Source of the DNA: Promethearchaeota archaeon
Lineage (GTDB): Archaea; Asgardarchaeota; Lokiarchaeia; Sigyniarchaeales; Promethearchaeaceae
DNA length: 32,000 nucleotides
Assembly: GCA_016933055.1 (NCBI GenBank)
Contig: JAFGBS010000009.1
Coordinates: forward strand, 270,001-302,000
Direction of reading: 5' to 3'
The translations under genes and the position numbers were made by a program. Position 1 is the stretch's first letter, and every line of letters starts with the position of its first letter. The notes under the pieces were generated by a model. That model was given only the letters and a program-made list of their open reading frames with translations, searched no databases and was not told where the DNA came from. Positions 1 through 26,312 of this stretch are shown piece after piece.

Positions 1-391
1 TGTCATTAATGGCTAATTCAGGAGGGAAAAATCCAGAAGAAGTATCTTTACCAAAATAATGTAAGTTAGTTTCTCGATTTAACTGGATTTGACGTGCAAC
101 TTCTTTTTCGGGAATAATCGGTAATAAAGGATGGAATTTAGCAGTACCTATTATCTCAATGTTTCCTTTAAACGCTAATTTGCGGAATAATTGGAGGGTC
201 TCCTGATGATTCGATTGATCTAGTAACTCTAACAACACACCAGAGATATTAAATGTAGTTTTTATATGTGGATGGTTATCCAGCATCCGCAAGAGTGGGA
301 GATAACATGAATTATTAATACGATCCAGCACCTCACGATCTTGAGTGGGAGGTTGGTAGAGATGAAGTAAATTAGCCCAATATTTAATCAC
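1..391 (-). CDS. Glycoside hydrolase family 57 protein, N-terminal part (runs off window edge; not in ORF track)
   Basis: Manual translation from GTG at 391: VIKYWANLLHLYQPPTQDREVLDRINNSCYLPLL...GTAKFHPLLPII...SGFFPPELAIND. It has the GH57 HxYQP motif, the HP(L/I)LP motif and the catalytic-nucleophile motif FFPPELA. Confidence 0.88.
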   Translation of the reverse strand, partial: MIKYWANLLHLYQPPTQDREVLDRINNSCYLPLLRMLDNHPHIKTTFNISGVLLELLDQSNHQETLQLFRKLAFKGNIEIIGTAKFHPLLPIIPEKEVARQIQLNRETNLHYFGKDTSSGFFPPELAIND

Positions 392-17865: not shown

Positions 17866-17984
17866 GAAATTATATCTATTGAGGTCTACAGTCTTTTAGA
17901 ATCCTTATCGGTATTTGAAACGACTTTTTAATCATTTTGATTTACATTAAATACTGTTCATTATTTTTCCTACATAGACTTCCT

Positions 17985-18278
17985 ATGCTTGAAATAACCA
18001 AGGAAGCGCAAGATTTCATTAAGAAATCTGGACACAATCAACCTGCTATTGTTGTATTCGAACGAACCTATAGTTCATGATGTGGTTCTCGAACTTATAC
18101 TAGTGTTCAAGTACACAATGAAACAGAATTGCGAGGATACGATGGATTGGAAGAAATTAAAAAGGAGGACGTGGAATTTTCTATTTTTATCGAATCCAAT
18201 CTTCATCCAAAACTCAAATTTGCATCCATAGATGTTCGTGGATATGGAGCATTTAAAAGATTAGCATTGATTGCGTAA
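17985..18278 (+). CDS. Probable selenoprotein, 97 aa, HesB/IscA-like small protein with UC motif (in-frame TGA at 18078-18080)
   Basis: MLEITKEAQDFIKKSGHNQPAIVVFERTYSS-U-CGSRTYTSVQVHNETELRGYDGLEEIKKEDVEFSIFIESNLHPKLKFASIDVRGYGAFKRLALIA*. The frame stays open for 65 codons after TGA, the TGA sits next to a Cys, and a SECIS-like hairpin follows. Confidence 0.85.
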
Positions 18279-18300
18279 AGCGTTTATGATAGGTAAAATC

Positions 18301-18354
18301 AGGCCAAATTGGATGATTGGTCAGTATAAAAGTGAGATTGATCATGACAGGTCT
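18301..18354 (+). promoter_or_regulatory. Eukaryote-like SECIS element in the 3' UTR of the selenoprotein gene
   Basis: Helix I AGGCC/GGUCU; core A-UGAU (18313-18317) / UGAC (18345-18348) with tandem G.A pairs; helix II UGGUCAGU/AUUGAUCA (8 bp); apical loop containing AAAA. Confidence 0.8.
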
Positions 18355-18431
18355 TGCAAAGACTTAACTGGCTTTAAGAATAAAAGAGAACTAAAATATA
18401 TCTATAAATGAATTAATGGTGAAATAAGAGA

Positions 18432-18881
18432 ATGAGTGATGACGAAGAAGTTAAAAAAATTCGCGAACAAAAAGAAGAATTATTAAAAAAAATGATTGCA
18501 GAACCTCAAATGCCACCGAACATACTTTATATCGATACGGTTGACCAGTTCAATGAACTAATTGAAACTTATAAAGATCAGATAATAATAATCGACTTTT
18601 GGGCCGAATGGTGTGGTCCATGTAAAATGTTTGGACCTATTTTCGAAGCAGCACAGAAAAAATGGGGACATGAAATTGTATTTGCTAAATTGGATACCGA
18701 AAAACTTCCAGGGGTAGCCCAACAGCTCCAAGTGATGGGAATTCCCATGGTAATGTTTATTAAAGGGAAAAAGGAGATTCATCGACAAGCAGGTGCTTTA
18801 CCTCGACAACACTTTGAGGACCTTTTGAAACGAGTAAAAGAAGCTGTAGATAGGGCGGAAAAAGGTTCTATGTATTCTTGA
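18432..18881 (+). CDS. trxA: Thioredoxin
   Basis: IDFWAEWCGPCKMFGP active site; cis-Pro motif GIP; SD-like ggtga upstream. Confidence 0.96.
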   Translation: MSDDEEVKKIREQKEELLKKMIAEPQMPPNILYIDTVDQFNELIETYKDQIIIIDFWAEWCGPCKMFGPIFEAAQKKWGHEIVFAKLDTEKLPGVAQQLQVMGIPMVMFIKGKKEIHRQAGALPRQHFEDLLKRVKEAVDRAEKGSMYS

Positions 18882-24893: not shown

Positions 24894-26312
24894 GTGGATA
24901 GATCATGGACACCTGATGTGAGAAACATCGCTCAACGCCTTAACCGTGCAATAAGGAAACAAGACTTCATTCAAGCCAAAATTCTAATTGATCAATTGAT
25001 CAACCAGAGGAGAAATGGAGTAAATCCTAATCTTCGTCAAGATGCTGCTATTGTGATAGATCACATAATTCAGAAATACGGTAAAGAGCAACCAACAGAT
25101 TTTCTCTCTGAAGATTGGCAAGGGGATTTTAAAGGAATTCGCAAGCGGCTAGTCATTTTATTTCAAACCAGAAACTTAGGGGAACTGAAAAAGCTACTGG
25201 AAAGAATGAATACTGTTGCTACTACGAATGCAGACTCTTCCGTTAGGATACAAGCTCTAAATATTCTTGCAGAGATTGCAAAATACAATGTGAAATTGGT
25301 GGATCTCTATGAACAGAAATATCTGCGAGTTTTTTTAGATGAAAAAAATCTCTCTATTCAGAAACTAGTAAATGAACTATTAGTACAAATCGACCCTGCA
25401 GAATATTATGGAAATTATGAACAGACCTTAGAAAAATTAAATCGTAGAGAAAAAAAGGTTAACATCACCGTGCGATATGATTTTCACAACGATTTTTTAC
25501 GATATAAAGTTCAAGTTCTTAATAATACGGAGGAAATTTTGTGGGATGTGAATTATCAGATAAATAAATATGAGAACAACTTAATTATCCGCCAAATTTA
25601 TCCAGACTTTTACGAAGTTTATGAAAATAATGTCATTTATCTTTCTATTCTTCGCCCTGGTGAAATGAAAGAGATTATTGTAACGGTGGAACCACGATCA
25701 CCTCAAATCTATCTGGAGGGAATGGTAAATTACAAAAAACAAAATGAAAATGATTACTATGCTATTCCCGCCCAAGATCTAATGGTGGATTTAATAGCAT
25801 GCTTACCCAAGTTCCAATTATTGGAAAAAAAGGTAGGTGTGAGTCATATTCGGGAATTTTTTGATTTTCATGTCAAATATAAAAGTTCCAACGTATTTGC
25901 ATTACCGAACTCGATTAGCCCTAAGTTAGCTTATAAGACAGGTAAGGAAATTCTAGAAAAGTTACATACGATACTGGCGTTAGATGTCATGGATGAAGAT
26001 CCATTTTTTGGGGAGGCATTGTTTTATGGGAAGACAGACGCAAATGAAGAAATTGTGGCTATATTACGCAGTTCTGAGGAAAACAAATCTCTGGAAATTA
26101 CCATTGGTACGAACAACAACACCCACTTAGTAGCAATACAAATCAGTTTTGATGATCAACTCCGTCAGAACTTAATTTTATGTCCTGAATTCTCACCACA
26201 TGATAAACTAATTGAGCTTAGATGCCCCCATTGTTTGAGTTCTTTTGATAAAATTCGAAACTGGTGTCCTTGGTGCGGTTTTGAACTCGATCCCAACTTT
26301 CTCCTCTCATAA
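24894..26312 (+). CDS. Helical-repeat + beta-sandwich + alpha/beta platform + Zn-ribbon protein (adaptin/coatomer ear-like)
   Basis: HEAT-like VRIQALNILAEIAK; Ig-like YKVQVLNN...LRPGE.K.I.V.V.P; platform-like ALFYGKT...LEITIGT; C-terminal CPHC...CPWC. Confidence 0.6.
   Translation: MDRSWTPDVRNIAQRLNRAIRKQDFIQAKILIDQLINQRRNGVNPNLRQDAAIVIDHIIQKYGKEQPTDFLSEDWQGDFKGIRKRLVILFQTRNLGELKKLLERMNTVATTNADSSVRIQALNILAEIAKYNVKLVDLYEQKYLRVFLDEKNLSIQKLVNELLVQIDPAEYYGNYEQTLEKLNRREKKVNITVRYDFHNDFLRYKVQVLNNTEEILWDVNYQINKYENNLIIRQIYPDFYEVYENNVIYLSILRPGEMKEIIVTVEPRSPQIYLEGMVNYKKQNENDYYAIPAQDLMVDLIACLPKFQLLEKKVGVSHIREFFDFHVKYKSSNVFALPNSISPKLAYKTGKEILEKLHTILALDVMDEDPFFGEALFYGKTDANEEIVAILRSSEENKSLEITIGTNNNTHLVAIQISFDDQLRQNLILCPEFSPHDKLIELRCPHCLSSFDKIRNWCPWCGFELDPNFLLS

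Follow-up and report, generated by a model that had tools for sequence, protein, structure and literature searches.

The region between positions 18301 and 18374 (plus strand) of the window, which is the whole stretch of 32,000 nucleotides that was analysed, very probably represents the SECIS element of the gene located at 17985 to 18278, folded in the form of a three-way junction and responsible for the recoding of the UGA codon at position 18078, as judged from sequence comparisons. The element is the decisive evidence for the annotation of this locus, indicating that gene callers had divided a single selenoprotein gene into two. Since this class of SECIS has been known since 2016, the main use of the present copy is that of annotation evidence. 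Only the three-way architecture is potentially new. The architecture itself is probable, and its novelty is uncertain.

The host gene (17985 to 18278, plus strand) encodes a UC-motif selenoprotein of 97 amino acids when TGA is translated as U, MLEITKEAQDF...YSS-U-CGS...RLALIA, and ends with a TAA stop codon at 18276 to 18278. Its UGA at 18078 to 18080, which should be read as selenocysteine at residue 32, is positioned 235 nt upstream of the AUGA of the SECIS element. The product reached 32 bits with the model NF041239, which is under the cut-off of 40, and the sequence suggests that the protein is a weakly related relative of the CC/Se motif family. In the accessible parts of the respective publications, the host gene family is missing both from the 2024 list of seven Asgard selenoprotein families and from a 2026 review.

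When 400 genomes of the phylum were searched in six frames, 21 homologues from 13 genomes were obtained, all of them from one Lokiarchaeal family, the Promethearchaeaceae. These 13 genomes are the host genome plus 12 of the 13 scored relatives in the genome family f1, which includes Candidatus Harpocratesius repetitus (G134; Promethearchaeaceae, Lokiarchaeia). Each of the 21 homologues possesses exactly one in-frame TGA, always in the same alignment column and surrounded by the motif [YF]xx-U-CG, and the C-terminal half past the UGA is conserved as protein up to the end, GW[SA]xF[KR]RL. Eleven further full-length proteins, 66-72% identical, came from metagenomes. They were listed with W at the UGA position because the gene callers used a TGA = W code, and a TGA was present in all 12 metagenomic contigs that were read; nine of the related proteins are encoded there. 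No Cys form of the family was found among the genomic and metagenomic homologues. A search of the genome contigs with the query P0001 yielded no related loci, and five distant partial matches of this query to metagenome contigs were left out of the analysis. Seven of the 21 family genes terminate with TGA at the expected place, and an internal TGA was absent from the other conserved genes checked in the host genome. This indicates use of the standard code with a site-specific reading of the UGA. A genome-wide reassignment of TGA could be ruled out since TGA also serves as an ordinary stop codon and the other conserved genes are free of it internally.

A thioredoxin gene (WCGPC) is located downstream of the selenoprotein gene and the SECIS element, at 18432 to 18881 (plus strand). 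A thioredoxin gene is also the next gene on two metagenomic contigs of close orthologues (L048, 846 to 1289, and L049, 693 to 1136), so that this gene order is conserved within the genus-level group. Two other loci, L058 and L059, encode the same protein (P0003), and their sequences diverge completely about 14 nt past the stop codon. L059 is without a SECIS element, L058 ends too early to tell, and the divergence is likely an assembly chimera.

The core of the element was described from the letters alone in a first-pass annotation, and the sequence that it gave is exact at 18301 to 18354: A18301-GGCC-aaauugg-A18313-UGAU-UGGUCAGU(18318-25)-auaaaagugag(18326-36)-AUUGAUCA(18337-44)-UGAC-a-GGUCU(18350-54). 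The distance of 23 nt between the TAA stop and the start of the element was also given correctly, and the AUGA starts 35 nt downstream of the stop. This AUGA (18313 to 18316), the putative 5' half of a non-Watson-Crick core with tandem G.A pairs, is invariant in 19 elements of the host gene family and 17 elements of a sister family. It is followed by U18317 opposite U18345, a ninth stem position that is mostly non-Watson-Crick in the homologues (U.U, A.G, A.A, or C.U). Helix II is composed of the 5' strand UGGUCAGU (18318 to 18325) and the 3' strand AUUGAUCA (18337 to 18344), both with compensatory changes in the close orthologues as well as in the family set. Between them is the apical loop AUAAAAGUGAG (18326 to 18336), with 11 nt, an A-rich start with four A among the first five positions, an AAA that is invariant in the alignments, and a final AG. 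The GA at 18346 to 18347, which would complete the tandem G.A core on the 3' side, does not vary in the family alignment and is followed by C18348. Most elements have GAC past the stem, whereas one paralogue group has GAU.

The same motif is located 4 to 50 nt past the stop codon in 19 of the 21 homologues, always as AUGA, a non-canonical position, eight pairs, a loop of 10 to 13 nt (17 nt in one case), a second non-canonical position, and GA. In 13 of these 19 elements, the spacing of 38 nt is identical to that of the window copy. The AUGA/GA quartet, the 8-bp helix II, and the A-rich loop of 11 nt of the first-pass annotation were found here far beyond chance. Covariation in orthologous untranslated regions, which that annotation had named as a check, was also found. 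In a sequence-only MAFFT alignment of 17 family elements that excluded the host genus, standard pairs occupied 93.2% of the helix II cells compared to 68.6% in shuffled and 23-55% in slid alignments, double changes occurred in all eight pairs, and the covariation score was 0.747 versus 0.266, with none of 500 shuffles as high. Nine close orthologues, six of them on metagenomic contigs, contain all eight pairs in every sequence, with seven compensatory pairs according to RNAalifold. The two homologues without the motif, L029 (G132) and L030 (G135), have kept the UGA, and a canonical AUGA...GA element was not found within 900 nt. The 3' region of L029 contains a hairpin with a GC loop, UUGGG-cagcc-CCCAA, flanked by UUGGUC/GACCAA. 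A divergent core or an assembly error may be the reason in both cases.

Scanning the genome with a loose pattern produced 144 matches, mostly chance, and the pattern was therefore tightened to ATGA-N-8 perfect pairs-9..13 nt A-rich loop-N-GA. This strict pattern matched six times in 7.5 Mb (both strands of the genome), compared to one to four times in shuffled genomes, which is a rate of 8e-7 per nt. Three of the six matches are directly behind UGA-containing open reading frames, those of VhuU, VhuD, and the host gene, and the other three are in coding or unrelated sequence and chance-like. At the strict rate, about 0.002 motif-bearing homologues would be expected instead of the 19 observed, with the reservation that the homologue finder had been slightly less stringent than this pattern. 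A plain minimum free energy of the region was no better than that of shuffles (z of -0.28), which is to be expected for a short, AU-rich k-turn element.

Two covariance models were used to relate the window copy to elements of other selenoprotein genes. Model R1 was trained solely on elements of the host gene family from other genera, and model R2 was built solely from sister-family elements. In the host genome, R1 identified the element of VhuU with 26.5 bits, where the stop codon of VhuU is the UGA of the AUGA. In the sister family, which is without the host gene, R1 reached 34-42 bits behind PrxL (HAD-UU-AD), VhuD (VAG-U-YEGECDY), and other UGA-containing reading frames. These sister-family elements are textbook lokiSECIS with nine positions, an 11-nt loop xAAAAUUxUAG, and 97.8% pairing. 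R2 placed 18311 to 18348 at the top rank in the window, gapless and fully paired, with 17.2 bits and an E-value of 0.12 per 64 kb, which is not significant genome-wide. Scaled to one strand of the 153-nt spacer, the E-value is about 3e-4. With 150 candidates scored in the whole genome, R2 had one weak, unrelated match. R1 gave the window copy 8.6 bits (E of 6.6 in the window), so that R1 does not provide an independent detection. With so short a motif and stems of freely variable sequence, the identification is built on position together with comparative data, and these place the window copy in one class with the elements of VhuD, VhuU, and PrxL.

Several other loci came up in these searches. 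In the window, R1 also matched 25600 to 25638 on the minus strand with 16 bits and an AUGA...AUAAACUU...GA appearance. This candidate was judged to be chance, because its upstream frames are filled with stop codons and the plus strand is apparently coding. The best R1 match in the host genome, with 31 bits, was an orphan SECIS-like element (G000:C5:34850-34913, plus strand; L040:1501-1564), in which a 7-bp stem with a long apical region is set between AUGA and GA-C and the flanks are complementary. It is positioned in a gap of about 740 nt between a divergent class-V aminotransferase-like gene and the gene for an ArsR-like regulator, and no UGA-containing reading frame was found upstream of it; this site could be a decoy or a regulatory SECIS. 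Three sister-family loci, L088, L090, and L091 (G260, G268, and G257), possess small zinc-ribbon reading frames (CxxC...CxxC) about 50 nt upstream of position 1501, which end with RFK-UGA and an immediate second stop, and a strong lokiSECIS is located 16 codons downstream. They may represent a family of proteins with a C-terminal selenocysteine outside the published Asgard lists. In L074 (G219:C65), a membrane-like reading frame with GGDG-U-GCLVISS just before a 38.5-bit SECIS match, upstream of 220 to 257 (minus strand), is a possible unlisted selenoprotein.

The host genome (3.76 Mb on 36 contigs, about 34% GC) contains the Sec machinery: a tRNA-Sec with 66 bits, a SelD gene that itself carries an in-frame TGA (HG-U-SCK), and SepSecS with 343 bits. 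A PSTK-like gene (133 bits, E of 1e-38) and a SelB-like gene (229 bits, E of 1e-67) are also present, both below the NCBIfam equivalog cut-off. Only two L7Ae-fold (PF01248) genes were identified, as expected for L7Ae and L30e, which leaves no obvious SBP2.

The base of the element is different from that of the first-pass annotation, which had closed the core with a helix I of five pairs, AGGCC/GGUCU. This helix can be drawn here but is not conserved, and its GGUCU belongs to another hairpin. Over the 19 homologues, the mean score for a simple lower stem was 0.6 compared to 3.0 in flank shuffles; the stem is confined to the host genus and does no better than chance in the sister family (3.4 versus 3.2). 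Instead, a hairpin begins 1 to 4 nt past the GA in nearly every element, with a score of 8.4 in the family set versus 3.6 in shuffles and 10.2 versus 3.9 in the sister family, and an outer helix joins the 5' flank to the sequence past this hairpin. In the window copy, hairpin 3 is AGGUCUU-GCA-AAGACUU (18349 to 18365), located between the GA-C and helix I on the 3' strand and obtained from RNAalifold and the orthologue alignment. The 5' strand of helix I, AGGCCA (18301 to 18306), pairs with the 3' strand, UGGCUU (18369 to 18374). The former agrees with orthologue complementarity and fold energy and the latter with the minimum free energy and centroid folds, the junction finder, and fold energy. 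The whole element from 18301 to 18374 appears as a three-way junction in the minimum free energy and centroid folds, with -15.9 kcal/mol compared to -8.7 kcal/mol for the fold of the first-pass annotation.

When full-length elements of all paralogue groups were analyzed together by MAFFT and RNAalifold, the subgroups were misaligned and helix II alone was recovered, so the junction was tested by a purpose-written finder with shuffle and decoy controls. The three-way junction was present in 18 of the 19 homologues, in the VhuD and VhuU elements of the host genome, and in most of the sister-family elements checked. The mean junction score was 20.2, whereas flank shuffles averaged 4.9 and a set of 711 natural ATGA decoys 5.5 (99th percentile of the decoys, 19.8). 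None of 100 flank shuffles attained the 23.1 of the window copy, and among the 711 decoys the proportion that did so was 0.28%. Since the finder demands perfect pairing, these values support hairpin 3 and helix I by means of controls and sequence diversity and not as a formal covariation statistic. The diversity is considerable. Helix I of orthologues is AAGCC/GGCUU or CCGCG(UU)/(AA)CGCGG, and the helices of the paralogue groups are unrelated yet complementary, for instance CUCAGAG/UUCUGAG, AAAAUCC/GGAUUUU, and AAACUCAAU/AUUGAGUUU. By our own count, the loop of hairpin 3 contains GC, often as UGCA, in about 29 of 34 elements, and CUUGCAAAG recurs behind the VhuD and SelD genes of the host genome, with the hairpin at SelD recognized as the same by eye. 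A consistent complementarity of the hairpin 3 loop with the 5' linker or the apical loop, as in a pseudoknot, was not seen by eye. In many homologues (L021 to L028), runs of 6 to 10 T are located directly 3' of the closing helix, which fits archaeal transcription termination right past the SECIS; no T run of this kind separates the window copy from the thioredoxin gene. The accessible main texts by Mariotti (2016), Huang (2024), and Sun (2021) and that of the 2026 review do not speak of a third helix or of a junction in SECIS elements, and a full-text literature search for "SECIS" together with "three-way junction" found no mention.

The element could nevertheless be a functional SECIS of the simple two-helix form, with AGGCC/GGUCU as helix I and with hairpin 3 and the outer helix being irrelevant or used otherwise, for instance as a terminator. 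The five pairs can be drawn here, four of them in the same-genus orthologue, and published Asgard SECIS models show a plain lower stem in the accessible parts of these publications. This possibility is nevertheless unlikely. The lower stem is absent from 17 of the 19 homologues and does not exceed chance in the sister family, its fold is less stable than the three-way one by 7 kcal/mol, GGUCUU/AAGACU is a separate hairpin according to RNAalifold, and equivalent hairpins with unrelated stem sequences follow the GA in nearly all elements. A terminator function of hairpin 3 would not agree with its enclosure by helix I, nor with the oligo-T runs, which come past helix I.

Alternatively, a structured element of the untranslated or intergenic region may have nothing to do with selenocysteine decoding, with the UGA handled otherwise or the reading frame truly split. 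It might stabilise the mRNA, regulate the thioredoxin gene downstream, be a small RNA, or provide an L7Ae k-turn site. Many k-turns are bound by archaeal L7Ae, the site is in a 153-nt spacer before the thioredoxin gene in a recurrent gene order, and one SECIS-like element in the host genome is without an upstream UGA-containing reading frame. That orphan on C5, however, is a match of R1 and not of the strict pattern; apart from it and the three chance-like strict matches, the motif in the host genome is found behind UGA-containing reading frames. In the relatives, the motif follows the host gene family whatever gene is downstream, and it is also present behind VhuD, VhuU, and PrxL, while the UGA column is invariant and the sequence downstream of it conserved as protein. 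An element unrelated to selenocysteine is thus very unlikely. Least probable of all is that AT-rich intergenic DNA happens to form such a hairpin by chance, for which one could cite the folding energy, no better than that of shuffles, and the many genome-wide matches of loose scans. Given the rarity of the strict pattern, its occurrence at 19 of 21 homologues, and the compensatory changes, the comparative sequence data effectively refute this explanation.

With a SECIS of the three-way form as the preferred explanation, the recoding event may be envisaged as follows. The AUGA (18313 to 18316) and the GA (18346 to 18347) in the 3' untranslated region of the mRNA would form a kink-turn-type core with tandem sheared G.A pairs, which would bear helix II (U.U plus eight pairs) and the A-rich loop of 11 nt. 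This core would be set into a three-way junction, closed by helix I (18301-06/18369-74) and with hairpin 3 (18349 to 18365, GCA loop) opposite the kink. The folded element may recruit the archaeal Sec-specific elongation factor with Sec-tRNA(Sec), either directly or via a putative k-turn-binding adaptor, and a ribosome arriving at the UGA at 18078 would insert selenocysteine and not terminate. Whereas sequence, position, conservation, covariation, and co-occurrence with conserved UGA codons and the Sec machinery were observed, the scheme infers how the G.A pairs are arranged, which protein binds, and that the UGA is recoded.

A further-reaching proposal is a tentative one, more open to doubt than the assignment of the element itself. 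LokiSECIS elements might generally be k-junction-type three-way junctions and not two-helix hairpins, hairpin 3 with its UGCA or GCN loop might be required by a predicted archaeal SECIS-binding factor, the eukaryotic SECIS might have originated by loss of the third helix, and the host gene might represent an eighth Asgard selenoprotein family. If the junction were needed for function, this would provide a better search model for Asgard SECIS elements, a revised picture of the descent of the eukaryotic SECIS from an archaeal one, and an RNA bait for the missing archaeal SECIS-binding protein.

Comparison with known SECIS elements shows which parts of the window copy are already familiar. According to the accessible text of Mariotti et al. 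2016 (PMC4989117), lokiSECIS elements possess an AUGA before the stem, a stem of nine positions, an 11-nt loop with adenine-rich first five nucleotides and a last G usually preceded by A, and GA, rarely AA, past the stem. The Asgard eSECIS-like type I model in the accessible text of Huang et al. 2024 (PMC11227280) allows a stem of 7 to 15 bp with at most two mismatches and a loop of 8 to 20 nt. The window copy agrees with every verbal criterion of both, with its AUGA at 18313 to 18316, nine stem positions (U.U plus eight pairs), an adenine-first loop of 11 nt ending with AG, and the GA at 18346 to 18347. It agrees likewise in its location in the 3' untranslated region a few tens of nucleotides past the stop codon, and in belonging to a Lokiarchaeal host that possesses Sec machinery of the archaeal/eukaryal type and no obvious SBP2. 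Its geometry is that of the published lokiSECIS, so that the class is already known. The first-pass annotation was right to assign the element to the AUGA...A-rich loop...GA type reported for Lokiarchaeota, and its suggestion of an intermediate form describes nothing new, since nine stem positions and an 11-nt loop are the published geometry. Differences are the loop sequence, AUAAAAGUGAG compared to the common xxAAAUUxUAG or xxAAACUUxGG, the host gene with its UC motif and CC/Se-like product outside the seven Asgard families of 2024, as far as accessible, and the base, which is here a three-way junction with a conserved GC-loop hairpin that does not appear in the accessible published main texts.

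The AUGA_GA quartet, the unpaired adenines in the apical loop, the site in the 3' untranslated region, and the presumed action at a distance are shared with the eukaryotic SECIS (RF00031). Helix II is shorter, however, with 8 to 9 instead of roughly 12 to 15 positions, and the internal loop is not closed directly by helix I. A cmscan of 17900 to 18500 with Rfam at E<=10 found no SECIS family and a chance CRISPR-DR as the sole match, in a release (15) that presumably includes the eukaryotic SECIS_1 model. A strict membership in the eukaryotic family thus fails. This is not exceptional, since all lokiSECIS elements fail the archaeal, eukaryotic, and bacterial models in the accessible text of Mariotti et al. 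2016 (PMC4989117).

The distinction from euryarchaeal and bacterial forms made in the first-pass annotation was borne out. With the SECIS of Methanococcales and Methanopyrus, the window copy shares the 3' untranslated site and a presumed archaeal SelB-dependent recoding, and the VhuD versions of that form also carry AUGA...GA/AA. The euryarchaeal element, however, is GC-rich with two stems and a GAA_A bulge, whereas the stems here are AU-rich; no GAA_A-bulged two-stem structure was found in the untranslated region, and a pattern scan of 18279 to 18431 with the eaSECIS-like model of Huang 2024 gave no match. A bacterial in-frame hairpin was not seen either, as the fold of 18078 to 18140 past the UGA was no better than that of shuffles (z of 0.05) and there was no Rfam match.

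Outside the SECIS elements, the closest architecture may be the k-junction, as in the TPP riboswitch, in which a k-turn core carries a third helix in the strand opposite the kink or bulge, coaxial with the C helix (Wang, Daldrop, Huang, Lilley 2014, PMC4005666). Hairpin 3 follows the GA-C on the 3' strand, opposite the putative kink, so that the topology of the secondary structure would fit. Counting the AUGA, about 6 to 14 nt separate helix I from the G.A pairs on the 5' side here, in contrast to a linker of 3 to 4 nt in the k-junction, and function and family are unrelated. The resemblance is therefore best regarded as an analogy in topology.
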